Assembly (NCBI GenBank): GCA_958009085.1
Contig: OY253683.1
Coordinates: forward strand, 496,001-560,000
Reading direction: 5' to 3'
Origin: Protoeuglena noctilucae
Taxonomy: Eukaryota
DNA length: 64,000 nucleotides
A program made the translations under genes and the position numbers. Positions 8,255-46,100 of the stretch are shown here, one piece after another (position 1 is the stretch's first letter; each line of letters begins with the position of its first letter). The notes under the pieces were generated by a model. That model saw only the letters and a list, made by a program, of their open reading frames with translations. It was not told where the DNA came from and made no database searches.

Positions 8255-11200
8255 TCAGCTACGGGTCGTCATGGCGTTCTCCGTCACCACCGGGCCCAGG
8301 GCCAGCCAGTACAGGTCTGCGTGGGAGGTCGAGAGATGCGGGTGATCAGCAGGGTGCTAGCATCCAATGCTAGCACTCTGCAGTCAGCCTTTGACACTCT
8401 ACAGATACTGTGCCAGGCATGTATGGACGGCATCTCACCCACAATCGTGTACTGGACGTAGTAGATGGTCCCAGATTTCATCGCAGTCGGCGACCCTGGG
8501 ATCGTGTTGGCGGGGCATCCCTGCAGGGTCACCGCCGGCTGCTGCACCCCGACCTGGGACGCCGTCACGACGTACTTGCCGTTGGAAATCAGGATGCCGT
8601 TCACTGCAGGTGCAAGGAAGAGGGGCGTCACGTCAACAAGTGGCGCGAGTGCAGCTGTCGATCGCAAACCCCTTCACCCACGCGCGCATTGCATGTCGCA
8701 TTGCCGTGCACAAGGCAACCCCGCCTCCCTCGTCTCGCTCGCCTGTGGTGGATCCCGAGCCCCCGATGATTTGGATGGGGTCGCCGGTGGAGCTGAACTC
8801 GTACATCTGGTACGCCACCAGGCCCGGGCGGTCGGTGGTGATGAAGAAGTCGAAGTGGTCGACGTACGAGACGAGGAGGTTGGCGGAGGGAGTGGTCATC
8901 TGCGGGTGGGGGACAGCGGGGGCGGTGCGGTTGCGAGGGGTGCTGTGGGCGGCGACATGGCTTGCGGGGAGCGGCAGGAAGCTGCCGGGACTGGGCACTG
9001 GCACTCTGCTTCAGTATTATTGCAGCAAGGGCACTACCGAAAGCGAGGGGCGCAGAATGGGCGCAGGCCGCATGCCACACGGCACTCACGTTGGGCGTCA
9101 GTCCGGTCATGTCCAGCTTGAAGGTGAAGGCCAGGGGTTTGCCCTTGGCCTGCGCGACCGTCATGATGTCCGGCGCCGTGTTGATGACCTGCGTGCCGCC
9201 CTGCGTGAGCGTGGACGCCCACGCGACCCACGCGCCCGACTGGACGTTGGCGGTGTCGCCCCCCGCCGCCGCGCCCTGCTTGCAGTCCCGGGACACCGTG
9301 TACCCCGTCGGGATGGCCGTGGAGGACACGGGCGTGCAGTGGTCATCGTATCCGTTGAACGTGTAGTCGATGCCGTTGGTGGCGCCCACGTTGTCCGACG
9401 CGACGGCGTAGACCGTGAAGGTGGCGCAGGGGGACGGGGTCCCGGACGTGAAGCACTGCGTCGTCTGGGTCGTGGGGATGGGCGCCCGGCTGAAGACGCC
9501 CGTCAGCGACGGCGTGGCCTTGGCGGAGGTGTCCGTGTAGTACGACCCATCGGCAGGCGCGGACACGGCGGTGGCCGTGACGGCCCCCGGCTGGTTGGCG
9601 CTCTGCGTGGCGGGCACCAGCGGGTCGCACTGGTTCCAGCACGTCAGGGACTGCCCCTGGACGCACACGCTGGCGTTGGCCTGGACCTGCGCCACCGTCG
9701 GCTGCAGCCCGCAGCCGCAGTTGCGGAACACCACGTACTGGATGTTGGAGGGCTTGTCAGTGTCGAACTCGATGGAGAACTGCAGCGTGTTGGACAGCAG
9801 CTGCGACGACGTCGGCACCAGCGTCCCGGTCGTGCCTGTGGTCAGCCGCACCCCCGTGAAGCCCGGCGGGGTCACGTCGCGCGTGCGGACGCCCTGCAGC
9901 GCCGCGGAGACGCCCGAGCCCGCCTGGATGTAGATGAAGACGTCGTAGACGCGCGCGGGCGTCAGGCCCGTGATGGTGAAGCTCGGCTGCGGGGTGGCGG
10001 TCGTGGGGCTGTAGGTGGCGGTGCCAGCCACGTAGACAAGTGTCGCGGGCAGGAGCGAGGGGTTCTGGAACTGCGTGACGGTCGGCACCGCGACTGGGCC
10101 GTCGTTGATCTCCGTGCGGTTAGGAATGCGGATCGGGCGCAGGACGGCCACGTAGCTGAGGGCGTAGCTGGCGTTGAGGGGCACGATGGCGCCGGGCGTG
10201 ATGGTCATGGAGGGGCCGGCGATGGCCGTGGCCGTGGGGAAGCCGGGGGAGAAGGACAGGATGTTCGGGATGGTCAGCTGTGTGTAGGGCGTCCAGGACA
10301 GCATGCCCATCACCGTGCCCAAGTACGTGGGGCGGTCGGTGGCGCCGTAGTAGGGGAAGAACCCCAGGGCGGTGTCTGTCGCGAAGGGCTGCCCCAGGGT
10401 GCTGAAGCGCTCCACGCGCACCGCCACCTGCATGGTGCCCGTCGACAGCGGCTGGATGGACTGCGCCGTCGAGGTGCTGCCCACCATGCGCACCACGAAC
10501 TGCCCGGCCGTGCCCGCGTACGACGCCGTGGCGACGTAGTACCCCGACTTGCGGGCGATCGAGAGGAGCGTGCCCGTCGAGTCGACGAACAGCGCGTCCT
10601 GGGTGATGCTGATCTCCATCGTCACTTGGTACTGCGCCGGCGCGCCCCCGGCAGTCGGGTCGCCCAGCGGGGTGCCATCCGCCGCCACCAGGGATGCCGT
10701 GACATGGACCTGGAGCGTGGAGGGGTCCGGCGTCAGGGACAGGCCCTGGAAGAAGTACTGCTTGCCGCCCTGGATGGACTGCAGGAGCACCAGGCTGTCG
10801 TCCCCGCCGGGCCGGAGCAGGGCCAGCTGGGCACTCGTGCGGCCACCGCCCGTGACGAAGGCCGTGCCGTCCGTGCGGGGCAGGTACAGCGAGTCTGTGG
10901 TGGCCAGGCTGCTGAAGTAGGCCATCGTGGCGTCGAGGGACTGCAGCTGGTGCACTGTCAGGCCTGAGACGGGGGAGCCAGTGTAGTCCAGGGTGGATGT
11001 GACGCCCTTGGCGGCACGGCTCGCTGCGGCCAGCACGGCCACCTCCTGCAGGTAGGTTTGGCGGTACCCGGACCCGGCCACTGCGAGAGGAAGAAGGAGA
11101 ATGGGTCTGTCTCAGTAACACGCCTGTCTTAGCAACGCGCCTCTCATGCAACCATCTCATGCGCAACCACCTTGCTCCAGAGCTTGCCGACACGAAATGC

Positions 11201-14200
11201 TCACCCGGGTTCCAGTAGTTGCGGGCGCGCGCCAGGAGCAGCCAGTCGTCCTTGTCAAAGGTGCAGGAGCCGTCCACGTCCCCAGGCGTGGCCGCGTGGA
11301 CGGCCTGCGTGCACGTCGTCTGCGCCAGCGCGCGCCCTGCGTCCTGCGCCCAGTGCTGCGCGCCGTGTTCCGCCAGCATCGCCGGCAGGAACGTTGGATC
11401 GAAGTCGACTTCAGACAAGAGCAGGCGGCGGGACGCGGAGACGACGATGGTGCCTGCTGCCGCGACGGCTGGGTACGAGGACGTCGTCTTAGGCACCGCC
11501 TGCGTCAGCGTGTCGACCGTGACCGTCACGCTGCTGCTGCCCAGCGCCTGGGCCACGAAGCTCAGCGTCGCCAGCTGCAGCGCCGCCCCTGGCCCCGCCG
11601 ACGTGCCCTGGAGGGTCAGCGAGACCTGACCCGCCACCGAGGTGGTGTCGCAGGACAGCAGCAGGGACCCGGCGTCAGGACCAGCCACGCACTGGGACAC
11701 CGCGACGGCGCTGCCGGTGAACATGACCCGCGCCGTGAGCTTCTGCACCGCCAGGGTGGGCGAGGCCAGCACCACCGGGACCGTCAGCACGTCGCCCACC
11801 TTGACGGAGGCCGCCGTGGTCACGGACGCGCTCGTGGGCGGGACCTGGAACTGCGGGCCGTACGCCACGCCCAGGTCCACGTCGCGGTCGCTGGGCGTCA
11901 GGTTGGCGTAGACCTGGGCGGTGGCCGACAGGGGCGCGCGGGTCCCGCACGCGTACCGGGCCGTGAGCGTGACGGTCTGCGTCCCCGAGGAGCTGGCTAG
12001 GAGCGTCACGTCGCCGTACTGCTTGCCGTCCGTCGCCGTGGCGATGGCGATCTGGGAGGGCTGGCTGGACGTGAAGGAAAGCAGCTGCGGCACCGGGAGC
12101 ACGTTGTTCGCGGCGCGGGCGTACCCCAGCACTTGCGTGTACGTCTGGTAGTTGGCCGTGTCCAGGGTCACGGTCGCCTCCAGCGTTGCCTGCGAGTTGA
12201 CGGCCCCGGTGAGGGTGCTCTGGCAGAGACCGTAGAGCGGGCCGGCTGCCGCGGCCGTCGCCGTGCACCACTGTGACACGGACAGGGTGAGGGACGCGAC
12301 CCCCGCAGGCGACGCATCCGACACCGACACAGCCACGGTCGCCAGCTGCGTCCCCCCGAGCGTCGCGGTCACGATGAGCGTGCCTGCCTGCGTGGGCTGC
12401 AGGCGGTTGGAGAGCCCCGCCACGCCCAGGTTCGCCAGCAAAGCCCCTCCAGCGGTCGGCGTGACGGTCAGCGTGGCCTGGGCGGTGACGTCGTAGCGGG
12501 TGCTGTCTGTCAGTTGCGCCTTGGCCCACACGGTTGCCTGCTGGTACGCCGTGGCGCAGTCGATTTTGTGGAGGGCCAGGGGCTGCGTGACGAACGCGGC
12601 GTCGCTCGTGACGTCCCCGGACGCGAGCGGCCCCACCGAGTAGTCCCGCAGCACCAGGGTGCCCGCCTGGAGCATCACCACCTGCACCGTCACCGTCTGC
12701 TGGGCCCCCGCTAAGAGCCCCGTCACAGTCACTTGGATCTTGGCCGACCCGACCCCCGTGACGTTGTCTCCAAGCAGCGGGGTCACCACCGTGTACCCCG
12801 ACGCGTCCTGGGACAGCGAGATGAGCGTCGCCCCGGACGTGATGGCAAACGTCGCTCGGGAGTCCTTGCTCAAGTCGAGCGTGGACCCGTCGCTGAGGCT
12901 CAGGAGCACCCGCAGCCGCGCCTTGGTATCCACTGAAATGGGCGCGGCGGCCGCGGGGTCGCCGGTGCGCGTCAGGCGCGTGACGGTGCGGGTGCCTGGG
13001 CCGGGGTAGTCCCGGAGGTCCAAGGTGGCGATGCCCTGCACGACTGCGGGCACGATGCGCGCCGGGGCGATGCCCGTAATGACCTGGGCCCCGCAGACGG
13101 CGTACGTGCCGCGGATGTAATAGCCGCACGCGGCCGAGGCGCCGTAGGTGGTGGAGAGGGTGGCGGTGGGCACCGACCCCGCGTTGACGGTGAAGGTGGA
13201 AGAGTCCAGCGACTGGAAGGTCGTGCTGGGCGTGACGTCCACGCGCGTACCGTCTGCGAGGACCAGGTACGCGCGGAGGAAGACCTGCTGCCCTGACTGG
13301 GTCAGTACCTGCCGGGGCGTGACTGACACAGCGGTGGGTGCGTCGGGGGAGAAGAGGCCGTTGGGGGGCCCGGTGGCGAGGGACGCGGAGGTGTAGGCGA
13401 CGACTTCGAGGGAGGAGAGGCACTCGGTCTGGGCGACGGTGGACACGGTGGCGGTCCCGCTGACGGCCGCGCTGGCACCCGAGGCGGTGATGGTGACGGT
13501 GTCGGGGCCGCCCATGCCCTGCAGGAGGCTGCCGCCCTGCACGGCCACGATGGACGAATCGGAAGACGCGAGGGTCACGCGGGAGGTGATGTCGACGTCG
13601 GCGACGGTGGCGAGCGGGGCGCCGTTGGCGGCGGCGGCCGTGAAGTCCGCTGAGACGCGGACGAGGGTGGCCTGGTACGTTGTGGAGGTGCAGGCGATGT
13701 TGGCGGTGGGGTAGATGCTCGGGAGGCTCGGGTCGGCGAGGTCGATGATCTTGTTGAGCTTCGTGCGGGAGGGTGTGACGTGGATGGCCGTCGGGAAGTA
13801 GACGGCCACCTGCACCGTGGCGCTGAGGCCGGACGCGGTGATCGTGAAGGGCACCGCCGCGCTCCCGGCCGTGTTGGTCGAGGCCACCGTCGCTGTGCAC
13901 CCTGAGAGAGAGAGCACCGACGCGTTGCCGGAGGCGACGGAGCAGGTGGGAGAGGAGGCGGGGGCGTCCGCGACGGTCGGATCGGAGCTGACCACGACCG
14001 CCTGGAGCGTGGTGGTGACGCTCGTGCCGTCCAGCACGACCGTGTTGACCAGGGCAGGGCGAGAGGCCCAGGCGAGGAGGCCCACGGGGCCGGCGGCGCG
14101 CACCAGCAGCTTGAACTGCGTCTGCGCGCCGCCCTGCGAGTCGTTGATCTGGCCCGTGGGCCGCGCGGCGACCGACTGCCCCGCGGACGTGAGGCCCACG

Positions 14201-17200
14201 AGGGTGACGGGGTTGGCCGCGTCGCCGGCACGCAGGGCGTTGGCGTAGGTGCCCGAGGCGACGGTCGAGAGCACCTGCATCTGGAAGGTCATGAGCAGGA
14301 GCGCCGAACCGGTCGTGTCGGACGCGGTGGCGGTTGAGGCGCGGCCGTAGGTGTTGAATGCAAGGTAGCCCGAGGACGCCTGGCTGACCACGAAGGGCTG
14401 CTGCCAGAGCGCCGAATTGACGGCGAAGGCCCCGGTGAAGGCGAGCTTGGAGGAGTCGTAGTAGACCGGGAAGGACCACACGAGGAGGCTGGCGCCGCCC
14501 GAGTCCGCCGTGACGGTGACCGTGAAGCGGGCGCCGGGGGCCAGGTACGTGGTGGGCATCGCGAGCGTGATGCCCGCGCCGGTCGGGGTCGTGTATTGCG
14601 GCGGCGGCTGCAGCGTCACGGCCAGCGCGGGCGACCGCACCGCGGTGCTGGTGTTGCCATTGTAGAGGACGCGGACGTTCGCCGTGGTGACGATGGCCGA
14701 GGCTCCCGCCGCGGGGAACGCGGCGAGGGGCACGGTCAGCGTGCACGTCCCGAGGCCGGTGGTCGGGTCGAAGGTTGAGGTCGCCGCATCGCAGGCGTCG
14801 GTGCGTGCGCCCGTGGCGCTGTTGGCCAGCTCGACTGAGGGGGTGCCGAGCCCCGCCGTGCCCACGACGACCTGCCCGTCGGCGTCCTTGAGCAGGTAGC
14901 GGAAGCTGAGCACGGGGGCGTCGGGGGACGCGGTCGCCACCCGCAGCACCGCGCTCATCGTCGATGCCGGCTGCGTCGCCACGGCGCCCGACACCGTCAT
15001 GGCCTGCTGGGTCGTCTGGTCGAGCACCGGCGACTTGGTCAGCGGCCCGCCGCCCGTGTACACCTCCAGCGACACCGCTGTCCCCGGGGTGGACCCCTCC
15101 AGCAGCCCAAAGGACCGGCTGCGGGTGGCCGTGGCGACGCCCGTGGTGCTGCCCAGGGCGGTGCCAGGCGACCCCGCGGCCACGTTGATGACCGGCCGCA
15201 GCGCCGAGGTGAGGAAGGCGTCCGTGCAGGTGGAGAGGTCGATGGAGGCGAACGTGGAGGCGTTGCCGACTTGCGTGGCCGCCACGGCCAGCACCGAGGG
15301 GTTGCGGTTCGGGGTGGGCTGGACCGTGTCCTGGCTGATGACGTAGAGCATGTACGACTGGGACGCCTGCACGCCGCAGCCCTGGGTGGTGACCCACTGG
15401 TTGGGCGTGGGCAGCGAGAGGATGCCCGAGAAGGGCGTGGAGCTGCCCGTGCTGTCCTGCAGGTTCCACAGCTGCGTGGGCGACGGCGCGGCGGCCGTCG
15501 AGGGCAGCAGCATCCACTTGGCCGTCGCAACCTTGTTGGCCTGCACCGACACGGCGTAGCCCGACGGGGCCGTGACCGTGGCCTTGGCCTGGAGCACGGG
15601 CGGCGTCAGGTCGAGCGTGGAGAAGGCCAGGATGGGGCAGTTATCCGTGGAGATTACGGCCGAGTTGGGTGGGCTCGCCTTGTCCTGCACCAGCACGTAC
15701 AGGCGGTAGGCGGTGGCCGACGTGAGGCCGGTGAGCGCGATCGTGCCCCCGAAAGTGCCGTAGTACTCCCCCGCCTGGTTGCCGATCTCCACGCGGTTGT
15801 CGCACGTGGCTCCCGTGCAGGGAGTCACGGTGCACACCGTGCCGGCCGCGTTGACGCTGCCGGCGACGGTGGCGGTGGCCCCGGTGGCGTCCTGCCCCGC
15901 CTGGATCTGAGCCGCCGTGGGGGCGCTGGCCGACTGGAGCGACAGGACATACCACAGCGACGTGGGCTTGTTCGCCGTGAAGTTCCAGGTGAACTTGGTG
16001 TCGGTGACCGTTACGTCGCCGGCGATGCACGAGGGGTCCAGGACCGGGGCGGCGATGTCGAGGGTCGACGTGGGCACCTGCTGCACCGTCGTGGCCATGT
16101 TGGGTGGACTGGCGTTGTCCTGGGCCGTGACGATCCAGATGAACTGGTTGGCGGCGTCCAGGCTGGTGCGGTTGATGTCCACAGAGGGACCTGCGGACGT
16201 GCGCAGGGCCGTGCCAGTGGCAACGTAGCTGGCCCCGTCCACCACGGTCGTCGGGGCCGCCGTGCCCTGCGCCACGGCCATGACCATGGCGGGGGTGACG
16301 CCCGTGGTGACCGTGGCGCACCCGCGGACCAGGACCCAAAACACCGACGCGGGTTTGCTGACGGTGACCGTCAGCGTCAGGGCCGTGGCCTGCCGCGCCG
16401 TGGCGGCGGCCGAGAAGGTCGGCGGGGTCAGGTCCGGCGTCGTGACCTGCCAGCACGTGGTGGTCGGCTGCACGTTGGGCGTGGGCGTGACCAGGTCCTG
16501 GGCGTACATGTAGATGGTGTACGTGGTGGCCTGGGCCGTGGGGCTCACGGTGGTCAGCACGGGCTGGTTGACCACGTTCACGCTGATGATGCCCGCCTGG
16601 GTCAGGGGGTCCGCCGTCGGGCGCTGCTGCGTGCGCACTTGGTCCACCGTCAGCGTGTAGGTCGAGCAGAGCGCGGCCCCGCCGATGACCATGTAAATGA
16701 CCTTGCCCGTCTTGTCCAGCTCGATGCTCATGTCGAAGCTGGTGGTGCCCATGTTGACCGCCTTGTACTGCACGAACGCAGGCGGCGTATTGCTGACCGT
16801 GCACACAGTGACCTGGGCCGGCGGGTCGGGGCGGCGGTTGGGCGTCGGCGTGGCGCGGTCCTGCGCCCCGAAGAAGGCGTCGTAGCACGTGGCGGGGTTG
16901 AGGCCCGTGACGGACAGGGCCGTGGCCGTGGCGGCCTGGTTGATGGGGAACGAGCCGTACTGCACGGCTGCCGTGCCCGAGATCAGGTCGTTGGTGGTCG
17001 GGGTGAAGGAGTTGGAGGGGTACATGGCCCAGTACACGGTGCCCGTCTTGCTCATCTGCACCGTGAAGGCCACGGTCGTGCGCTGGACGTCCGTCGACGC
17101 AGGCGTGCTGTTGATGAAGGCGGGCGGGGTCGTGTCCAGCGTCGTGACGGGCGTGACCTGGGAGAAGAGCGACGGAGGATTGTGAGTGCGGGGGCCATGT

Positions 17201-20200
17201 AGCGCCGGAGGGGCTGCCTGCGCATCAGCTGGCACTACACGGCCTGTGCACCTGACACTACAGGCGACGCTCAAGTCACCTGGAGGCCCTGGCGGGCGCC
17301 CGAGTCCGGGTTCTGAGACTGGGAGTACACCTGGTAGAGCGTCGCGTCGGTCACGGTGGCTCCGTTCTGGCCGTTGGCCACCGTGACGGTGATGGCCTGG
17401 TTGCGCTGGATCACTAGGGTCACCCCCGCGGCCATCTCGACCCAGGGCCCGGTCACGCACGTCTGCGCCAAAGCCCGTTTGGTCCTCCCCGCAAGCACCG
17501 GGCCCTCGCCGCAGTCCCCAGCACCCTGCCAGGCTGCGCCGCCACCCCTGGCCATCATCAGACGCCGCGCTGTGGCCGTGGGCGTCGCCGCAGACGTGGT
17601 CTTGGGTGTAGATGCAGGCGTGGGCATGGACACTGCAGCTGGCGTCGATGCCGGAGTAGCTGCGGACGTCGCTTTTGGCGTCGACGTCGGCGTGGGCGTT
17701 GCAGCAGCCGTGGAGGCTGGCGTCGCTGTGCCGGTCGGCGTGGCAGCGGACGTAGCCTTGGGCGTCGACGTAGACGTGGGCGTCGGCGTCGCAGCAGCGG
17801 TGGGCGTAGGGGTGGCAGCAGACGTGGCCTTGGGCGTAGGCGTCGGCGTGGGTGTCGCAGCGGTGGGCGTAGGAGTGGCAGCGGACGTAGTTTTGGGTGT
17901 CGCCGTCGACGTCGAAGTGGGCGTCGCAGCAGCCGTGGAGGCTGGCGTCGCTGTGCCGGTCGGCGTGGCGGCCGACGGGGTTGCAGTGGGCGCGGACACC
18001 GGCGTGGCACCCGCAGTCGATTTGGGAGTCGGGGTGGCCGTCCCGGACGACGTGGCAGCCGGCGTGGCAGTAGCAGCCGGGGTGGCAGTGCCGGCCGGGG
18101 TGGCGGCCGAGGTCGGGACGGGCGTGGAGGTCGCGGTGGGCTGGGACGCCCCCGGGAAGTCGAAGGGCCCCCGGATGGTGGGGAAGGGGCAGATGGGGTT
18201 GGCGGCCAGCAGCTCCGCGCACCGCTGGTTCATCTGGGCCTGGGTGACGACGGGGGTGGACCCGGCCGCCTGGTTGTTGGGCTGAACGATCCAGTAGCAG
18301 AGGATGCCGACGCTCTCGACGGCGATGTTGACCGTGAAGGACGTGGCCTGCACGTCCTTGGGCGTGACCGTGTAGGCGGGCACCAGGAGGCTGTCATCGG
18401 CCGTCTGCATCGACAGCGTGACGGCCGAGGACTGCAGCGCCCCGGAGGTGTTGGCCGCGGTGACGAAGACGCGGTAGGGGGTGTTGGGGAGCAGCGCGGT
18501 GGCCGAGGCGCTGCACAGCTGCGTGTTGCACGCCGGGCTAACGGTAGCCTGCGCCACCTGCTGCCCCGTCGCCGAGAAGGACCCCGCCGCCACGACCCCG
18601 CCGGGCGCGACGGCCTGGATCGACAGGCCGGCCGCCGTCTGGACGCTCGTGGCCGCCATGGTCGTCCCCGCCACGAACGCAAACAGCGTCTCCTTGTACC
18701 TCGCCACGGGCTCCCCCAGGACCACGGCGTAGTACACCGTGCCGTCCTTGTCGAGGGTGGCGGAGAGCGTGAAGGACGTGTAGCCGACGGAGTTGATGGA
18801 GGGGGAGACGAGGAACTTGGGGGGAACCATGTCGGGTCCCGGGGGAGGCGGAGGGGGCGGGGGCGGAGGGTACGTGAAGGGCGGCGGGGGCGGCGAGGGG
18901 GGCGGCGACGGCGGCGGGGGCGGGGACGGCGGAGGGGGCGGCGGCGACGGCGGAGGGGGTGGCGGGGACGGCGGGGGCGGCGCGGGGCCCACGAGAGTGA
19001 AGGTCGCGGTGCGGAGGGACCCCGCGAGGCGATCGTCTTTGGACACAGGAACGGCCATGAAGACGTACGAGACGCCCGGCTTGAGCCCGCCGCACCGGGA
19101 GCACGCCCGGCGGAGGCTATCTGGGGCGGGTAGGGTGCGGCGAGGGCGATTGGTGTGGAGCAGCACCAGCATTTGGAAAGGCCCGATTGCCCTTTCAACC
19201 CATGGAACTGTCGCAGGTCGCCCTGGGCCGACACCCTGGCTCGTGTCTCACCTCGGTAGATGGGGCTGCTTGGGCTGTGGGCCCTCATCGTTTGGAGGAT
19301 GTCTATGCACTCGGCGGTCGCAGGCGCATCTGGGACGCCGATCACCGAGGTCATGTCTAGCGTGGGTCCGGCCCACCCCAGGGCAGGCACGGGGTTCAGG
19401 GCGCCCCCCGCGGGGCCCCACAGCGTGAGGACGTGCAGCACGCGCTCCTGCGGGCACGTCGTTCGCAGATGATCATGCTTAGCTCAGGTCAAGAGAAAAA
19501 GATAAAGAACGAGCTTTACGACACAGGCTGGCACGAGACATGAAAGACAAGTGTGGTTTCCACAGAAGGGGCTGTGCACGCAACCCCGGTGTTGCATGAA
19601 TGACCCGCACCACCCCACAGCCGAGTGGCACCTGGGAGATGGGCGCCTCGCCGCACAGCACGGCCTTGCTCCCTGTGCCGCCCAGGCGGAATGCAGCGAG
19701 GTCCTTTCCAGAGATGCCCGGCCTCGCGGCGTTGACCTGGTTCGCTGGGAACACGGCCCACCGCACGCGGGCCTCGTGCTGGTTCGGGGTCACGTAAGCC
19801 ACTGACACTCCCACGTCCGCACTCCACCCCGTGGTGCTGAGCACCTGGGGGGTCGTGGTGATCTGCGGGGGCGGGGCAGTGTGATGGTTCTGGGATTTGG
19901 GCTGGGCCGGGTAGGATGTGGGAGAAGGCACGCCAGCGGGTGCAGTGCAGGTGCTACAAACGGAGGCGTGCGGACCAGGTGCAGCAGCTCCGTTTTCACC
20001 TTGGGAGGGGTCAGGAAGAGCGCCAAGAGGAGGGCGAGAATGGCGAGAAGCAGAAGGAGCAGCAGTAACAGCCAGATGCACCAGTTGCGAGGGTCGAAGA
20101 GAGCGTCGATGTGGGACTTGCGGCGGTAGTCCGCGAGGGCGGGGATCCAGAGGTTGTACGAGTGCACGAGGACGGCCGGGCGACGCTTGCCGTCCGTGGC

Positions 20201-36390: not shown

Positions 36391-38077
36391 ATGGTCGTTA
36401 GTACCGTGGCCACGACATGGTGTCGGGGAGCCTGCGGTGCCGCCACTTCGACGCAGCGAGCCGTGCCCAGGGCAGCCCTGAACGATGTGGCCCGTGCCGC
36501 GCACCCAGGCGAGATTCCCCGCATACGGCGGCTTGCGATGATTCATTGTTGCCACAGTCATCTTTCGGAGGCTCGAAGAGACTCCTTCTTTTTCACACAG
36601 GGCGGCGTGGACTGCTGCGAGCTGACGCCACGCCCTCTCTGAACGGCAAAGGCCATTTCCACCACGTTCACGAGGCGTCGTTGGCCGAGGATGTGACGGA
36701 CGTGCCTGCACGGGAGCTAGTGAACTCGGTGCTTCAGATCGTGGATCGCGACAGCTCCTCAAGCGATGTCGCCGCGGGCACGGTCCCGCCAGCAGAGACG
36801 GAGCGCCTCGACTCCCTGCTCCTCGCCCTCTCCCAGATCGGCAAGAGGCAGCAGCCGCGCCCGCTGCACGACCCCCTCCTTTTCGGCAACTACCGGTGAC
36901 AGACGCGAGGGTTGGCTCCTGCAGTGCGACTTCATAGTACTACTCATGCTCGTGACTGCATGACTGTCAATCCGCTCCTCTGCAGCGTGAGCTACGTGTC
37001 CAGCCGCGGATCGCCAGCCGGCGGACCCATCGTCACCAGTCCACGGTCGCGGCGTGTGTTTCGCTCCAAAGGTCTGTATCAGGCAATCGCCCGTGGCCGT
37101 CTGGGCCACCCCTCGATCGTCGTCAACAAGGTCGTGGCGTCGCTCTTCGGATTCCTCACGTTCTCGATTGCCCTCAGGCGAGCGCCCTGCCTGACACCCT
37201 GGGAGGTGTTTGTGCAGACACCTCCCACGCCATTCCCGTGCAGCCCCACATGCGTCGACCCTGGCCACATGGCCAACATAAATGGTGTCGTCAACATGCA
37301 GACCTGCCCCTTGGCTCTTTCGCAGGGGCCTGGTGTGCCGCCCATCTCTAGAGACCCTGACGGCTTTGGAGGACGAGGCAGACACAGTGAAGGTCGTATT
37401 CGACCCCGCGAGACTGCTGCTGCCGGGCGGCATCGAGGTCCGTGTGGGGCGGCCCAGCTCCGTGACTCTGCAGACCGTGTACCTGGATGAGAGGCTGCGG
37501 CTGGGGAGGGGCAAGTATGGGGCCACGTTCGTGTTCAAGGTGAGAAAGGGGCCGAGGCTGGGGAGGGGCAAGTGGGGCGAGTGAGTTTTCGGAGCCCTCT
37601 CTTACCGATGCGCCCCCTTCCCTTTGCAGAGGGACGCGGCTGCGGACTGGGAAGACATGGAATCTTTGGGAAGGGAGCCGGTGCCGGCAGCGTCACAGGC
37701 GGCGGGCATTGCTGTGACGGCGGCGCTGGCGGGGCTCGGGGCGCTGTGCTTGGTGGGCCTGTGGGGGGTGGGGCCCCTGGCACTCCTGCCGTTAGGTGAG
37801 CTGAGCTGGCAGGGTGCTGGGCGCGGTGCTGATGCGAGGCTTGTTGGGTTCATGTGACGGGCGCTATCTTGTACTGCACTTGGTCGTGGATGCAGGCCAG
37901 GTGGGGCCGGTGAGGGCCGCGCTTGCCCCGGCGGTGCGGCTGCTGGGATTCGTGGTGGGGCTGGTGGCCGCGGGGCTGCTGAGGGCGATGGTGCAGGCGG
38001 CGATGGTGCCTGACGTGGCCGTGGACAGCGCACAGAAGGAGGCAGGGGCCCCAGAGCCGGTGGCGGAGGGCGCATGA
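36391..38077 (+). CDS. Plastid lipid-associated protein (PAP/fibrillin-like domain) with two C-terminal hydrophobic segments
   Basis: Transit-peptide-like N-terminus; RLDSLLLALSQIG...PLHDPLLFGNYRVSYVS; SSVTLQTVYLDERLRLGRGKYGATFVFKR (fibrillin TYLD..LR..RG..G..FVF motif). Introns 36509-36600 and 37178-37325 are GC-AG. Confidence 0.78.
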
Positions 38078-38228
38078 GAGCAGCCGGGCGGGAGGCATGC
38101 ACGCGCTTTCACAAAACACGGACGGGTGGGAGGCATGCAAGCGCTTTCACAAAACAGCGCCTAGGCCTGGCCTGAACTGCCCCGATCAAATCAGTGTAAC
38201 CAGTAGAATACGGATCTGCTTGCGAACG

Positions 38229-41200
38229 TCAGCTGTCAAAGTCGTCGCCCATGGCGCCCACGCGCGTCGCGGACGTGTGGTTGCGGCCAAGGTGCCGCGG
38301 GGCCCCTTGCGCTGCGCTGGCCACCCCCTGCGCCAGGGCCGCGTGGTGTGCGGGCGCACCCCGGCCGCCCCGCTCAGGACGCCGCCGGTGCGCGTCCCCG
38401 TTTTGCTCTGCGTCCCCTGAGCTGGCGTCCTGCAGTGTCTTGATGATGAACTGCTCCGCCACGTACACCTCGCGCTCCATCAGCAGAGAGAAGCGCCGGA
38501 ACGCGGGGCCTGGGGGGGCGTGGACGGTGTCGATATAAGCGTGTTGATGTAAGAGTGTCGATGTTGTCAATGTTTGAATGGCCACGTACACTACGGGGTG
38601 CCATTGGACGTCGTGAGGCGCACAGGGCAGCGCACGCGAGCCCCCACGCGTGCCCTATCAAGTCACCCGTGTGGTGCTTGTAGTGGACGAAGGTCCCCGT
38701 GAGGCCGTGGTACTCCCAGAAGTAGCGCATGATGCGGGTGTGTGCCGTCTTGCGCGCCGTGGCCCGCATGCCGAAGCGGAAGAAGTCCTCCAGAGCCGTG
38801 GCCACGGTGCCCACCACGCTGAAGATGATGGACGTGTTGACGAGCGCCAGGGTGGTGCTGGTGGAGTTGTTCGTGTTGGCGAGGACGCTGATGAGGACGG
38901 GGACCAGGACGCCGGAGATGAGCTTTACGAGGCCCACTGTGCCGACAGACGGGGAGAGGCACATGAGGCGGAGTGGGAGCGTGCGACTGAGACCCAGACT
39001 GAGACCCACACGTCCGTGCTGACTGCCAGGACCTCACCCGTTCGGAACCATCTCTCGTTGAGTTTGAACTCCCCCTGCTGCTTGTGTATGACGTCCAGGA
39101 ACCGCGTCAGCATCCACTGCCGCTCGTGCGTGCGCAGGCGCAACTGGGCAATCAAGTCGCCCAGCTCCCGCAGGCCACGGTTCTTGCCCTCCCGCGCCTT
39201 GAGGCGGTTGGACTGCGGAGGCAGAGCGAGCTCGTCACCATAGTTACTAAGTCACCAACACTGACATTGGGGTGACCACATGTCTGCTGATTGCTACCCC
39301 CACATGACCCCCTCAGAGAGGCCCACCCATGCACCAGGCTCACCGAGTGATCGTAGTCGACGTCCGCGTCCAGTTCAGCTGCCCGGGCCTCCTTGAGCTC
39401 CTTCTCCGAGACCTCGAACTCCGAATCAGAGTCGTTCTTCACCGCCTGTGCAGATAAGGGACAAGGGACACGGTTACACAGGGGCACCTCAGGCGCATGC
39501 ACCACGATACGCATGAGCCCTGGGACAGTAGGGAGTGGCGCAGCGCAGCCGCTGGGCAGCGACAGACAACAGTCATATCGTATTGCATCGTCACTGCATT
39601 CCTCGCCTTCTTGCGTCCCCGGTTCTTGTCGTCGTCATCGCCGCTCCCGTCGTCGTCCCGCCCAAACACCGCCATGCCCAACAGGGCCGCGTCTGCCACC
39701 GCCCCAGACCGGACCTCGCCCACACCCGACACAAACGGCGCCGTCGCTGACGTCCCCAGATCCCCCGTGCCCGGCCGCCCACCTGGGGTGCCCGGCAGCA
39801 GCCCAGCCCCGAACCTCGACATCCCAGACACGTCCGTGTGCAGCGTGCCGTTGGGCGTGGGGAACCAAAGCCCCGGCCGTCCCCAGCCCCCGAGCCCGGA
39901 CCGCCAGCCGAGCAGCGTGGATGGGGCCCCGGGAGTCCACGGCTGGGCATGGCCGGTCGCGGGCCCGGGCAGTGGGGCTGCCTCGATCTCCGCCCGCCCC
40001 GCTGCCCCGGATAGCCCGAGGTGCGAGCGGGGCGTGGGGACGGCAGGCGCATCCCCCGCGGGACTGGGGAAGACCCTGGCCCCGCCGTTCCTGGCGCGAG
40101 GGGGCCTGTCGCCCTTAGGAGTGCGGAATGTGGCCGTTTCCTGCGACCTCGACTCTCCGTGCCGCTCCCGGCCATCGTGGGCCTGGCCACCTGAGCAGCA
40201 CAGGGCACCACCGTCGCTGTTACAACCCATCCACTCGTGCCGCAAGTACACGTCATCTCATCCGAGGAAGGGTTACACATGCCCCTGCCATGCCAGCCCC
40301 GGCCTCACCTCTTGCAAACGACGCCTCGGCTGCACCGTCTTCCTCTTCCTCGTCGTCTCTCCTCCTTCCCCCACGCCCCCTCCTCTCACCGCCCCGCTTC
40401 CCATTTCCACCCCCGCGATCATCCCCACCACCCCACCTGGCCCGGCCCTTCCGGCCCCGCCCCTCCCCCTCCCCCCCTCGGTCCCCATCCCCAGATACGC
40501 CCGCCTCCTCACCCTTACGCCTGTTCCCACGCTCCCAGTCGTCCTCAAACCCCTCCATCTCCTCACGCATCTCCTCCATCGTTATTGCAGGCCCTGACAT
40601 ACCCACCCCAGCCCCCTCCCCACCGCCATCATCATCACCCTCGTCATCCCCACCGTCGTCCTCACCCCGCAGCCTCCGCAGCCCAGCCTCTGCTGCCCGC
40701 TGCACCCCAATGGCCAGCGCGACAGCGTCATTGGACTCTTCGTCATCCTCTGACTCGCCATACTCACGCTCCAAGTACTCCCCAATGTCCTCCTGCCCTC
40801 GCAAGGCCCGTATCGCGTGAGCCCCCGCCTGCTGCACCCCCATCACCAGGCCCAGCGCCTGCGACCTCGCACTCTCCTCCGACTCGCTCCGAGCCTGGAG
40901 GCCCCACATGGCTGTGCCCGGGGCGGCTGCGGCAGCCGCGTCGCCGGCGGTCGCTGCCCCTGCCACCGATTGCTGCTCAGAAGCGACAACGGCCTCGGGA
41001 CCCCCAGCAAGGGCCGCACTGGGTCCCTGCTTGGTGCCAGGTATGCTCTCAGCAAGAGCAGCGCTGGTCTCCCGGTCCTCTGCAGTCTTCTGCTGCTCCT
41101 CAGCAGATGTGACCCTACCACTCGGCTGCTGCACAACCGTCGGTGCAAGGGAACGCTCCTCCAGGTCCCTCTGTGCCGCTCCCCGGTCTCCTGACTCAGC

Positions 41201-42509
41201 CAACGCCCCGCCTGCGTTAGAGAATCCTGCCGACTCCTGCACTGCAACCGCGCTCCCTGCGGTGGCACTCTGGCGTGCAGCCTCCCCAGCACCCGCCCTG
41301 CCGTCGCTCTCCCCAGTGACGTTTGTAGCAATGCCCTCTGCACCCCTGGCTGGCTCCCCCTGAGCGCCGGCGACCCCAAGCACACCGCCCCTGTCCCGCT
41401 GCACTTCCACAGACCCAACCCCGGGCAACCTGCTGTCCTGCACCCCGCGCCCCGCTTGCTCTCGCCCCTCCCCACGCACCCCCTCTCTCTTGCCACCGGT
41501 GTCGTCCCTCGCTTGCACCTCCGCCTCTGCCACCCGCCGTAGCTCGTCCACGACCGAAAGCGGCTTCCCACGACGCCTCGACTCGTCGGTGTATCGCTTG
41601 GGTCGCGCAGGGACGTGCGGTGACTGTGAAGGAGCAACAACCACGTCCGATGGCTGTGATGCGGGCTTGAGCGGACTGCATGCAGGAGTGGGGAGCATTG
41701 GGGAGCAGGTAGGGCACACCACGACAGCACATGCGTATGTCGTGTCACAGGCAAGATGGAGTGGCTGGGTGTCTCCTCCATTCCACATGCACTCACCTGC
41801 CAAGTGCCTCTCGCAGCGGCTGGGTGAGGTCCGTCACGTGGCCGATCCTGCGGTCGTGCTTGGCCGTGAGGGCGTGCTGGTCCAAGCGAGGCGCTCCAAC
41901 AGCACTTGCAGTAACTGCGCCGGGAAGGTCGTCAATGCCCACCGCCGCAGGGCTGGGCGTTGCTGTCCTTATGACAAGCTGCCCGCCCTGGCTGGACCCC
42001 GCGGCAGGGGCCGTGCCTGGGCCTGTGAGAGGCAGTCCCAGGGAAGCCGGGACGGCGCGGACGGGGGAGAAGGCTGCAGATCCCGCTGTTACTCCCCGCG
42101 CACGGGCGCTGTCGGCTGTGGGTGGTGTGGAAGGGTGAGCCGCGCGAGGTGCACGGGCAGTGTGGGGGCGTGGGGGGGAAGGTTGGGGTCCGGGGAGGGG
42201 CGCGGCGTAGATGGCCTCGAGGGCGGCGATGCCAGGGTGCGATCGCCCAGCAGCCGGCTCGCGCCCCAGTCGCAGCGCCTGCAGTTGCGGAAGCAACGGG
42301 GGCTGTGATGGGTTGTGGGACGTGACACATTACAGCATGGGCGTGGCGCTGCCAACGTATCACACCTGATGACGACTCTCAGTGGATTCGGCGACAGTAA
42401 CTGGAGCGCCCCGGCCGGCGCCGCTTTCGACCCAGGCAGTGGCGGCGAGCCCCGACCTAGGCGGCTGAGGAAGCGCTGAGCTGCTTGCACTGGAGCGCCC
42501 GCCGGGCAT
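38229..42509 (-). CDS. Large protein with long disordered N-terminus and C-terminal SLATT/DUF4231-like two-TM domain
   Basis: Exons splice in phase from MPGGRSS (42509) through ORFs 41793-42296, 40253-41803 and 39439-40251 to ..LGDLIAQLRLRTHERQWMLTRFLDVIHKQQGEFKLNERWFRT|VGLVKLISGVLVPVLISV..SIIFSVVGTVATALEDFFRFGMRATARKTAHTRIMRYFWEYHGLTGTFVHYKHHT|GPAFRRFSLLMERE...DDFDS*. Confidence 0.7.
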
Positions 42510-43196
42510 TGCAGATGACGAAGGACATCATGTCATTGGGGAGAGAAGGAACGACCGCGGCTGCGGGAGGAAAAGGCGCAACCATTTACGGCGCGTTCCG
42601 CATGCAAAGGCCCACTCCCTCTCTTCGCGATACCGCAAGCGTTGAGGAGAGAACAGGGCAGAGCCTTAGCTATCGACAATTGCAGCGCGATAGGCACAGA
42701 CTCCTCTCGGCGCATGTTCGGCGAGGCACATGGTCGAGATGTGGGCCGCCAATGACAGGCGTCCAAAACACACCCCTGCGCGAGGTCCACCCTTCAAGCC
42801 CTTCATGCTCGCACTCGCACTGACCATCGCAAAGCGCAGAGCGGATCTCACCTGGCTGAAGTGCTGGGGATGGTTTTGTGGGGTGTCCCTCCTCCCATCC
42901 ACACATGCCCTCCCCCCTTCCTTGCTCAGCCATCTGAAACAAGGAGCGTCCCCTTGCGACGAAGAAGCGCACGGGTAACGAGATTTGTGCTGTGGTGTCA
43001 TGCGCTGATGAGTCAGCTCCATACGGAAAAAGCAATCCAAAAGTCCTTCGCAGCCGCGATATCAGGAACAGGCACTGGAAGCGTCGGTGCGTCGTTGGAC
43101 GTTGTCGCTGCACGGACGGGTGTGCGTGGACATTTAAATTCAACCCCATGACGTCGACACCGCTGCCCCTTCTTTGAGGGTTTCTCGAGGGCGAGG

Positions 43197-46100
43197 ATGG
43201 AGCGCCCTCGATCCACGTATCGCTCCGATATGGAGCCGAGGCCGCAACACCTGGCCCAGCGCCCCACTGGTGAGGGCCTTCTTAGCATGAATTTTCAAGC
43301 GAATGCGCGCTCTTCAGTCAATGGAAAGGCCTTTGCGTGACAGCTGGTACATCCTCCTTTCACGCAGGGTTCTCAGGGCGGGGCGGCGCAGCTCCAGAAC
43401 CCACTCGCAACCCGTTGATGCGGGCGGCCACCTTCAACGCGGGCCACGGCGGCCCCCACAGCCCCGTCCGACCCCAGCTGCGGCCACATCCATCTCTGGG
43501 GTCATCAGGCGCTGCTTACGCTCCTCCCCCTCCTCCCCTCCCTGCGGCCAACATCTTTGCCCGGTCTGCCTCGCTCCGTGACCCTCGCTGGCACACGGAC
43601 GACGCGCCCGATGAGTACGAAGACTATGAATACGACGAAGGTCCTGCGCCGGACGCACGGGGGTACGCCCACGACATGCTGATGATGGAGGAGCAGCGCA
43701 GTGCGGGGTACGGGGCCCTGGGGGCCCAAACTCTGGGCCTGCCGATGCCCAGGGGCGGGTACGAGAGGCCGATGGCGGGTCACGCGCTCATGGCGGAGCG
43801 GTCGCTGAGCATGGAGGAAATGCAGTCGGGATCCGAGGGGTACGAGGAGGTGAGACGCTTTGGCATGCGCTGGGGTGATGAGAGTGCATCCCTGGGGTAC
43901 CCCCACGGCTGTTGCACTGAAGAAGCTGTCAATATTTTTAGTTCTCCGGTCGTCCCGCAGTCCGTGCCTGACTCGAGTCCCGAGCTGGTCCGGCACGGCG
44001 GTGCTGGGGGGAGGGTCGCGACCGGCAACAACCCCCTCATGCGCGCCGCCAGCATGACGCAGGCGCAGTCGCAGCAGTGGGGCCGGCCCTCTCAAACAGG
44101 CCAGCAGGCTCGCGGGTGAGAGGCGGGGGAATGGATGGATGCAGCTGCGACGTTTGCCCGGTTGTTGGCCGAGACGACATGTCACACGCGCTCGCTCGCA
44201 GGTCCCTCACTGGGTCGGGTTATGCCGCAGCCCCCGGACAGGCCCAAGAAGCGCAACAGGTGAGGGCCGCACGCAGAGTGGCTGAACTGGCGTTGCGTTT
44301 GCGCCCTGCCCAGCCACCACATGCAGACAGGCTACCTCCACGAACCCTCCACAGGTGCGCCACAGCCCGCTGGATGTGCTGGAGGCCCTCAGCCAGGCAG
44401 ACGCGCTCCTGCGGGCAGGGGAGCTGGCCTCTGCCGGCCCAGTCACCTCCCGGGGCACCTTGCCTCATAGGGCGGCCAGTGCGCGTGCAGCCTTGGGCCT
44501 CGGCGGCGACTACGGGGACGTCGACGCGGCAGAGTCCCCGACGGAGCAGGAGCCCTGGCCCGGCGCCGTCTCCCGCGACGGTTCGCGTCTCGGGGGAGCG
44601 TCGCGGGGGTCACACCCCGAAGGAGCAGGCATCGAGGAGCACCGACCGGCCAGGGGCCCCGGCCGCGCCGCGTCGGCATCCGCGGCCCTCGGGGCGCGCG
44701 TGGCTGCAAGCGCCGGCTGGCGCGAGCCTGCCGGACTGGCGGCCCCAGGCAGGGCTGCGGGGTTCGTAGGTAGCGGAGCGGACGTGTGGCGGCGCGTGGA
44801 GGACGGGGACGAGGCCCGCTCCGTGGATTGGGAAGGGGACGACGGGGACGGAGGCTGGCGGTCTACCCCGTCGGGGGAGGGTGACGATGGGTGGGGCGGC
44901 GCGCCTCCGCCGTTGGAGCACGCTGGCACGGGGCGTGACGGGTCTGGGAGTGGGGCCGGGTCGGAGGAAGATCGATGGGGGTCCCGGGGAGGTTCCGGGG
45001 CCGAGGGTGGGCGTGGGGCGGGGCTGGCGGGGGCGTCGATGGGCATCACGCGGCTGCGGGTGGCCGAGGAGGCGAGGCTACAGGGGCCTAACCAATCTGC
45101 TGCGCCTTCGAGGGCATCTGCTGCGTCTGAGAACGAGTCATATTACATTTCGGGGGAGCTGTCGGGTGGCAGCGGGGCGGACGCCCGCGGCTCTGGTGGG
45201 AGCGTCGCTGAGGGGTCGGTGGGGCTGTCGAGGAGCACGGGGCGATTGCTGGAGGAGGCGGTGGCAGAGACAGGTGACGGGCTGTTGTTGACGGGCATGG
45301 TTGTACGGAGATGGCTGTGGTGCAGCTGAGCGAGTTTCGCGGCTTGGAGGCGGGCGAGGCATACGAGGCGAGGCATATAAGCGTAACTCACTGGTTGCCC
45401 TTGCAGATGCGCTGCTGCAAGCGATGGGGGAGCTGTCGGGGGTGGGCGAGGGGAGGGCGAGGGTTGCGCGCGAGGCAGGCGGCGCGCCAAGCAGCGCCAG
45501 GGGCGTCGGTTCGCCTGACCCAGCGAATGGGGAGGGCGATCAGAGTGCATCTGGTGAGGCATCGGTGTCTGTGAGTGGCGAGCACGACAGGGATGCATCG
45601 AGGGACGTCGCAGAAAGGGTGACGGGGCCGGGAGGGCACAGCGAGGAGAGCCGCGGTGACGGCGACGAGTCACGAGGCAGCAGGAGCAGCGAGGGGCCAT
45701 TCGGGAGCAGCGAGGGCGTGGAGGAGGTCCCTTCAGGGGTCGCTGGGGACGCAACGGGTGTGCGTGAGAGCGCGGAGGAGTCGCGGGACGGCGTAGCGTC
45801 GCCGGCGGCGGAGGACAGCGCGCGTGCGATGACCGAGGCACTCTGGGCTCAGTTCGAGGGCCGCATTCTGGTGGAGGGGGCCCGTGGGGCCGATAAGGCG
45901 CAGAGCCGGGGCGGATCAGACGCGGGCTCTGGTTCTGCGGATGAGGCGAGCGCAGAGGAGGAGGAGGAGGTGGAGCTCGAGTCAGGGCTGGAGGGGCGGA
46001 CGTCAGAGAGGGGAGGTGAGGGGAGGCAGAGAGGGTCAAGTGGTGCGAGTAGGTCCCTGTGGCGAAGCGCATGAAGGGATCGCACGTTTCAACACGACCC

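Follow-up and report, generated by a model that had tools for sequence, protein, structure and literature searches.

Bacterial immune modules that survive in eukaryotes, such as cGAS-STING, TIR, gasdermin, and viperin, are under active cataloguing, and Pfam holds a fungal SLATT family, too. To our knowledge, no eukaryotic SLATT protein has been functionally tested. SLATT domains are predicted to act as nucleotide-signal-responsive, pore-forming or membrane-perforating effectors (Burroughs et al., 2015, as described in PMC7159879). The window considered here, which is the whole analysed stretch of 64,000 nucleotides (contig OY253683.1, positions 496,001 to 560,000, assembly GCA_958009085.1, Protoeuglena noctilucae), carries on its minus strand, with the coding region at 38229-42509, a gene whose last approximately 220 residues form a DUF4231/SLATT_1-type domain with an N-terminal helix, a hairpin of two transmembrane segments (TM1 and TM2), and two C-terminal helices. 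The gene is real: it belongs to the nuclear genome of a marine microbial eukaryote and is both transcribed and spliced. Its gene model and domain identity, taken jointly, are nearly certain.

In eukaryote-associated genomes, SLATT is reported to be widespread, as SLATT_4, in cryptophyte and Tetraselmis polinton-like viruses (PMC12220804; 10.1101/2025.10.09.676808), and SLATT proteins are described to occur in giant viruses (10.64898/2026.06.19.733378; 10.64898/2026.09.30.755861). The viral genes and the window gene have such genomes and a related fold in common, but the SLATT_4 of polinton-like viruses is a different subfamily, and the giant-virus fold matches are short and virus-borne, whereas the window gene is spliced and cellular. 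In Gephyrocapsa huxleyi, the SLATT-domain gene EMIHUDRAFT_256646 is described as being regulated in opposite directions during viral infection with and without a quorum-sensing signal (10.64898/2026.09.30.755861); compared by this description only, it resembles the window gene as a cellular SLATT gene, from a marine alga and discussed in relation to viral infection. SLATT genes have thus already been published from algae, giant viruses, and polinton-like viruses, and routine annotation would label the cellular and viral ones of algae. A full-text literature search, supplements aside, returned no paper on this cellular SLATT_1/DUF4231 family or on the testing of any eukaryotic SLATT protein.

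With the prokaryotic nucleotide-signalling SLATT effectors, as far as PMC7159879 describes them, the window gene shares the superfamily and the prediction of a two-TM membrane-perforating effector; those systems, however, are defined by activation through a linked nucleotide-generating or nucleotide-binding partner, and none was found for this gene within the window. The bacterial DUF4231/SLATT_1 proteins of filamentous cyanobacteria, Nitrospira, Chloroflexota, and Actinomycetota, here represented by the protein P0016, agree with the window protein in their colinear helices, the proline of TM1, and the A-x-E-x-F-F motif. They have 185-450 residues, occur by themselves or in fusion with SLOG(LSDAT) or lysozyme, and are often encoded beside TIR, TPR-S, or caspase genes, whereas the window protein has 1134 residues, a low-complexity head of approximately 890 residues, eight introns in its gene, and no linked partner in 64 kb.

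The gene model was obtained by aligning contigs of the marine metatranscriptome runs X8, X10, and X11 and of the DNA run X5 to window 37600-43400. Contigs of the gene were found in all three metatranscriptomes, and all eight introns are spliced out in RNA contigs. Its parts are the following:

38229-42509, minus strand: coding region with its ATG at 42509 and its stop at 38229-38231, eight coding exons, product of 1134 residues
42366-42509, 41797-42278, 40309-41675, 39607-40190, 39344-39445, 39038-39212, 38667-38936, and 38232-38509, minus strand: coding exons in 5' to 3' order
from 42852, minus strand: further, untranslated 5' exon (RNA run X8)
42561-42851, minus strand: intron in the 5' untranslated region (joint 42560/42852, CT..AC on the plus strand, RNA run X8)
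39607-42509, minus strand: low-complexity N-terminal region, residues 1 to approximately 859, four exons
39446-39606, minus strand: intron with a GC donor (GCGAGG...GCACAG; joint 39442/39604 in X8)
39344-39445, minus strand: exon D, residues 860-893, with an acidic Ser-rich motif
39213-39343, minus strand: intron between exons D and C (GTGAGC..CCGCAG; joint in X8 and X11, none in X5)
39038-39212, minus strand: exon C, residues 894-952, with the SLATT N-terminal helix and the start of TM1; aligns from position 1 of the bacterial-only profile and is colinear with P0016
38937-39037, minus strand: phase 1 intron inside TM1 (GTGAGG..GCACAG; joint in X8 only)
38667-38936, minus strand: exon B, residues 952-1042, with the rest of TM1, TM2, the ALEDFFRFGMR motif, and the next helix
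38510-38666, minus strand: intron between exons B and A (GTGACT..CCCCAG; joint in X8 and X11, none in X5)
38232-38509, minus strand: exon A, residues 1042-1134, with the last helix of the domain up to approximately residue 1071 (window 38421) and a low-complexity C-terminal tail

The RNA joints within or near the domain are 38508/38666 (X8 and X11), 38936/39038 (X8), and 39212/39344 (X8 and X11), and five more lie upstream in X8 (39442/39604, 40187/40306, 41675/41797, 42277/42365, and 42560/42852). Once the ambiguity of placement is resolved, all but one of the introns have GT..AG ends on the minus strand (CT..AC as read on the plus strand). The exception, 39446-39606, is GC..AG, and among its six equivalent placements only a shift of +3 yields a G[T/C]..AG intron. 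Run X10 covers parts of the gene only, without joints, whereas two contigs of the DNA run X5 together span the entire stretch with none of the RNA joints present. Nothing is inserted at 38936/39038, because X8 contig 16 has consecutive record positions there, and its 274 letters from between positions 1941 and 2216 are accounted for by 175 + 99 bases of the next two exon pieces. The joined exons form a frame that is open for 1140 codons, with the first Met (42509) lying six codons past the upstream stop. In addition, the uninterrupted frame of a relative on contig L059 (protein P0047) aligns through all three splice junctions, its few small gaps all being elsewhere. The peptides quoted in an earlier reading of this DNA from its sequence only are all encoded by three stop-free stretches of the minus strand, and the exon borders of the spliced message (exon C, 39212-39038; exon B, 38936-38667; exon A, 38509-38232) agree with that reading.

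Exon B alone (89 residues) matches Pfam DUF4231 (PF14015) at profile positions 22-101 of 103 with 25.9 bits (E 1.4e-5) against a gathering score of 24.7. The NCBIfam SLATT_1 model (NF033634) gives 26.5 bits for this one exon, under its cut-off of 41. A profile of length 166 was built from 13 bacterial DUF4231 proteins only, and the spliced model, scored against it by script, reaches 71.6 bits in a single alignment of residues 913-1071 to profile positions 1-156. By the same profile, exon B alone scores 48.2 bits and exon C alone 10.2 bits, and the maximum over 200 shuffles of the C-terminal 280 residues is 4.1 bits. The first match in a protein atlas is a DUF4231 cluster (score 0.93, 193 of 256 features shared), with which the ten best family-bearing matches all share family or clan. 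For SLATT_4, the Pfam model (PF18186) found no match in the window exons or in 17 relatives at E 0.1 to 10, and the relatives P0004 and P0003 score 23.0 and 26.7 bits with the NCBIfam model (NF033632), which has a cut-off of 55.

The three domain exons align colinearly with the bacterial protein P0016. This protein shares 37% identity with exon B (E 1.6e-4 by phmmer in 1.84 billion proteins) and has one 90%-cluster member named 'DUF4231'. The cyanobacterial motifs that the sequence-only reading gave resemble this real bacterial relative. In an alignment of 27 eukaryotic and bacterial rows, positions P167, A198, and E200 (numbered as in P0004) hardly vary, and the window protein carries VPV and ALEDFF at the TM1-proline and A-x-E positions. 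A 7-row eukaryotic alignment of the window exon B and its six closest relatives has 18 invariant columns, including S171, S190, T194, and ALEDFF..G.R, and these invariant Ser/Thr positions fall within both TM helices. The intron-containing, bacterial-type DUF4231/SLATT two-TM domain proposed by the sequence-only reading is thus borne out by the RNA joints, the Pfam and bacterial-only profile scores, and the atlas match; neither a missing DUF4231 profile match nor another splicing pattern was found, as the Pfam cut-off is passed and the introns are removed in RNA.

Short TM-domain matches are generally weak, and exon B exceeds the Pfam cut-off by 1.2 bits only, so that bacterial contamination, a pseudogene, or the chance match of a hydrophobic hairpin had to be considered. 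This artefact is refuted by the spliced message, by a match that spans the soluble helices on either side of the hairpin (71.6 bits against at most 4.1 after shuffling), by the existence of conserved relatives, and by the position of the gene among eukaryotic genes on the contig; its probability is negligible.

A phmmer search with exon B against 1.84 billion representatives gave 17 proteins at E 0.001 or better: 15 eukaryote-like proteins, several of which show intron read-through, the bacterial P0016, and a low-complexity repeat artefact (P0012). The ten clusters that were looked up come from ENA, JGI, and Logan assemblies only, with members named just 'hypothetical protein' or 'DUF4231'. 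A word-index protein search returned P0001 as the sole match in its 'longer' class, with the 'near' class of exon B empty, and the L059 C-terminus retrieved four proteins by the same index, with no name beyond 'hypothetical protein'. The Pfam scan covered 17 proteins, including 14 phmmer matches and the cluster members P0019 and P0037; the DUF4231 cut-off is passed by six of them (P0003, 42.0; P0019, 41.9; P0004, 32.9; P0037, 32.4; P0008, 25.4; and bacterial P0016, 113.3 bits), and 14 match at E 0.1 or better. The SLATT_1 cut-off of NCBIfam is passed by P0004 (52.9 bits) and P0003 (51.4 bits). The full L059 frame, P0047, scores 22.9 bits with Pfam DUF4231, slightly under the cut-off, and its C-terminal part scores 28.2 bits with SLATT_1, also below.

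L059 is a JGI metagenome contig of 72% G+C, in which the 1127-codon uninterrupted frame of P0047 adjoins an intronless eukaryotic topoisomerase I gene. Residues 847-1084 of the spliced window protein and 873-1110 of P0047 are 56% identical. A long head is also present in the L059 protein, without sequence similarity to that of the window, the N-terminal approximately 850 residues of which gave no alignable similarity to the P0047 N-terminus; the distant relatives P0003, P0004, and P0037 have shorter heads of approximately 110-270 residues. P0001, judged from read-through translations, has the D/C and B/A intron positions in common with the window gene, lacks the TM1 intron, and has an extra intron in TM2, and the L059 relative has no introns. 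Because intron positions differ among these three, a long residence in eukaryotic genomes is suggested. Contigs L057 (76% G+C), L058 (71%), and L059, all with family members, also carry apparently intronless genes (for a CLC channel, UDP-glucose pyrophosphorylase, and topoisomerase I); their very high G+C and these genes suggest that they come from at least one G+C-rich lineage of marine eukaryotes.

Of the residues encoded by the four N-terminal exons, 65% are G, A, R, E, P, or S, and a Pfam scan of their translations found no family. The low-complexity stretch before the domain is approximately 890 residues long with the acidic Ser-rich motif at its end, and its composition suggests that this head is disordered. 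The sequence-only reading had proposed a fusion to more than 1,000 residues of disordered sequence; the domain does end a long low-complexity protein, but the head falls short of that length. The acidic Ser-rich motif of exon D (AVKNDSDSEFEV...AELDADVDYDHS) is conserved in P0001 and P0047, and it might conceivably be a phospho-regulated or sorting motif.

Hydropathy gives exactly two hydrophobic segments in the protein, at approximately residues 951-971 (TM1, which starts in exon C) and 980-1000 (TM2, window 38791-38853). As read from the sequence, the loop of approximately eight residues between them is uncharged, and basic residues lie on both outer sides of the pair; therefore, both termini are predicted to face the cytosol. 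The AlphaFold2 model of the relative P0004, made from a 27-row alignment, has a predicted local distance difference test score of 84-97 per ten-residue block from residue 111 to 270 and consists of four long helices (124-173, 179-203, 205-227, and 239-269). In PDB, Foldseek returned no structure with an E of 0.001 or better and a sequence profile returned none with an E of 1 or better, and VIA-align wide gave a best Z of 9.5 to generic BAR-like or helical bundles, which is under the level that the tool regards as meaningful for helical proteins.

Relatives of P0016 were found at 27 loci in named bacterial genomes, including filamentous cyanobacteria, many Nitrospira, Anaerolineales, Thermomicrobiales, Actinomycetota, and Geminicoccaceae, and 104 open reading frames were scanned around 14 of these loci. 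At L002 (5160-7667), two DUF4231 genes in tandem are immediately preceded by a SLOG (LSDAT_prok) gene, and at L007 (478-1779), a SLOG(LSDAT_prok)-DUF4231 fusion is encoded beside a TIR-PASTA protein; LSDAT_prok is the prokaryotic version of the SLOG domain of TRPM channels. Three filamentous cyanobacterial loci (L004:2806-4128, L005:5992-7272, and L006:2305-3594) have DUF4231 with a C-terminal phage-type lysozyme and a Peptidase_M15 gene nearby, to which L005 adds a triple-TIR-CHASE2 protein. The DUF4231-lysozyme layout resembles a membrane-tethered lysis or cell-wall-remodelling cassette and may bear on the role of the domain. At L023 and L026, DUF4231 is followed by a 658-residue TPR-S protein with a caspase or TIR gene nearby; L019 has a TIR gene just upstream and an nSTAND1-WD40 protein; and L015 has MazF, integrase, and caspase genes in its vicinity. 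The scan gave no telling partner at L003, L008, L012, L027, and L028. Over the 14 loci, SLOG is adjacent or fused at two, TIR is nearby at four (within 3.5 kb of DUF4231 at L005, L007, L019, and L026), TPR-S is next to DUF4231 at two, and lysozyme is fused to it at three.

From the biology of this bacterial family, as predicted by Burroughs et al. (2015, as described in PMC7159879), the hairpin may be supposed to assemble with copies of itself in a membrane and to alter its permeability. The cytosolic helices and the long head, with the acidic Ser-rich motif, would keep the hairpin closed, or would guide it to a membrane, until a signal arrives. The nearest bacterial relatives being fused or adjacent to SLOG(LSDAT), TIR, TPR-S, or lysozyme, a linked sensor gene would since have been lost in eukaryotes, which the domain may have entered once, long ago, from bacterial conflict systems, as the tree and the intron pattern suggest. 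This explanation as a whole, with a spliced SLATT_1 gene, a gated hairpin, and a single ancient bacterial entry, is the best one at hand and is given about an even chance. The gated membrane-permeabilising mechanism, taken by itself, is proposed tentatively, with a probability somewhat under even. By extension from the bacterial relatives, the protein may reasonably be supposed to act in cell death or in antiviral defence.

Several observations weigh against a gated effector. The presence of the gene in all three metatranscriptomes is as compatible with a constitutively expressed membrane protein of housekeeping type as with a latent effector. Neither exon B nor three bacterial proteins gave a match with the PADLOC-DB 2.0 models, the effector models of which reached marginal scores only (RTasSLATT, 14.9; '2TM Effector', 13.7 and 14.0 bits). 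The search for SLOG, TIR, and CD-NTase partners that the sequence-only reading had proposed came back empty in the window, where none of these, nor SMODS, was found among 141 frames of at least 170 residues or in the four N-terminal exons. The pore model is also without structural precedent, because solved structures resemble the domain no further than generic helical bundles, and the domain may be a mere membrane anchor in the three cyanobacteria, because it is fused there to lysozyme.

These same observations, namely the transcripts in all three metatranscriptomes, the lack of a sensor or signalling partner among the window frames, the lysozyme fusions for which anchoring would suffice, and the marginal PADLOC scores, favor a housekeeping membrane protein that plays no part in conflict or in cell death. 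Its hairpin would anchor it in the plasma membrane or an organelle, act there as a scaffold, or form a small constitutive channel, and the head would be the functional cytosolic part. However, the 56% identity between the window and L059 proteins spans the cytosolic helices and extends beyond the hydrophobic segments; because the head cannot be aligned between the two, it is the SLATT domain that selection has conserved; and the nearest bacterial relatives neighbor SLOG, TIR, TPR-S, and caspase genes. A housekeeping role is a serious rival, possible although on the unlikely side. The gated effector can also be extended to the suggestion that a lineage of marine protists has long kept, in the form of an ordinary spliced nuclear gene, a sensor-uncoupled SLATT_1 effector, held in check by the disordered head of approximately 900 residues and a phosphorylatable acidic motif, as a regulated cell-death executioner or an antiviral, membrane-permeabilising switch in plankton populations; this stronger version would have a low probability, and, if true, it would be a eukaryotic counterpart of bacterial abortive infection.

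The origin of the domain was approached with a tree of 58 rows, nine of which are eukaryotic domains, including the spliced window model. Left out were the fragments P0006, P0010, P0011, P0014, and P0015, the intron-read-through proteins P0001 and P0013, the near-duplicates P0019 and P0037, the artefact P0012, the duplicate loci L037, L050, and L053, the frameshifted L028, and loci whose domain scored <20 bits against the bacterial-only profile. A branch with 100/100 support separates all nine eukaryotic rows from the others, and a single entry into eukaryotes would be compatible with these data. The eukaryotic stem of 3.9 changes per site is attached within the Nitrospira set beside a zero-length branch, with a warning of long-branch attraction from the tool, and Nitrospira is not accepted as the donor because of this long stem on a zero-length branch and the long-branch risk. 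A tree constrained to join the eukaryotes with 19 cyanobacterial rows is worse by 5.65 log-likelihood units, a difference too small for its rejection (approximately unbiased test, p 0.142). Of the endosymbiotic, lateral, and virus-mediated origins that the sequence-only reading had put forward, the tree singles out none. A second, divergent cyanobacterial DUF4231 group (L041-L049 and L055, from genomes G010, G061, G076, G046, G091, G070, and G025), with proteins of approximately 260-300 residues and Pfam scores of 33-52 bits, has a branch of 10 changes per site in the same tree.

As to origin only, the close P0016 relatives in filamentous cyanobacteria and the cyanobacterial grouping that is not rejected would suit an endosymbiotic gene transfer from the cyanobacterial ancestor of plastids. 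Against this, the maximum-likelihood tree sets the eukaryotes within Nitrospira, albeit under the long-branch warning, of the 101 genomes sampled from the phylum to which the L002 genome belongs, just 21 carry DUF4231 (all of them genomes of at least 3.4 Mb), and the family is small and patchy, with 15 eukaryote-like clusters among 1.84 billion representatives. A plastid origin is considered improbable.

A viral gene, either a recent integration of a polinton-like or giant virus or an acquisition through such a virus rather than directly from bacteria, would be in keeping with the wide occurrence of SLATT genes in cryptophyte and Tetraselmis polinton-like viruses described in the reports cited above. 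In a viral structure library, the best match is an uncharacterised protein of the giant virus ChoanoV1 (E 1.5e-7, TM-score 0.52/0.60, 23% identity), and the top 50 rows include eight proteins of giant viruses that bear the name SLATT, the fold-matched viral proteins having approximately 190-290 residues. A recent integration is opposed by the eight spliceosomal introns, by a G+C content like that of the flanks (63-75% in 2-kb steps over the window), by the ordinary eukaryotic neighbors, and by the finding of no capsid, polymerase, or integrase families among the 141 window frames. Nor did two IMG/VR sequence scans give a close viral relative: the first, with exon B, gave one locus, L001, the open reading frame of which is a phage tail-collar protein (Pfam Collar, 119.7 bits) and was rejected as a chance match, and the second, with patterns of the eukaryotic family, confirmed none of 79 candidates. 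The SLATT of polinton-like viruses is, moreover, reported as SLATT_4, and the window family matches DUF4231/SLATT_1. A viral source is considered very improbable, with an ancient virus-mediated route still conceivable in view of the fold matches.

For a cellular SLATT_1/DUF4231 protein from a marine eukaryote, the gene supplies a clean model that RNA verifies, and it defines a small family, including the intronless L059 relative, which is suited to cloning and to tests of permeabilisation and virus-induced plankton death. It adds a family member and an unusual architecture, with a long low-complexity head, an acidic motif, and no linked sensor, and no new principle.

The Pfam scan of the 141 window frames identified, as neighbors, SF3A3/Prp9, TMEM14, methylene-tetrahydrofolate dehydrogenase, a JmjC/cupin protein, an MFS transporter, a DRMBL nuclease, a protein kinase, and an aminotransferase, which show only that the DNA is eukaryotic and nothing narrower. 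An exon of the aminotransferase, searched in the protein atlas, gave Eukaryota with Streptophyta as the commonest phylum, but just 2-3 members had a phylum on record, too few to place the organism. At 37600-38230, a convergent plus-strand gene has an intron at approximately 37794-37893 (GT..AG, RNA run X8) and a frame that ends at 38077; the 3' untranslated regions of this gene and the SLATT gene overlap or abut, because X8 contig 16 runs through both. On the other side, a divergent plus-strand gene (43268-43367 and 43286-44116) starts within a few hundred bases of the 5' exon of the SLATT gene, with an RNA joint of GT..AG type at 43268/43367 and a product without a Pfam family. Farther away, 10123-18393 on the minus strand is one stop-free frame of 2757 codons, the sole Pfam match of which, a marginal one, is the Ig-like 'TMEM132 fourth domain' (27.2 bits, cut-off 27), and it probably encodes a very large secreted or surface protein.

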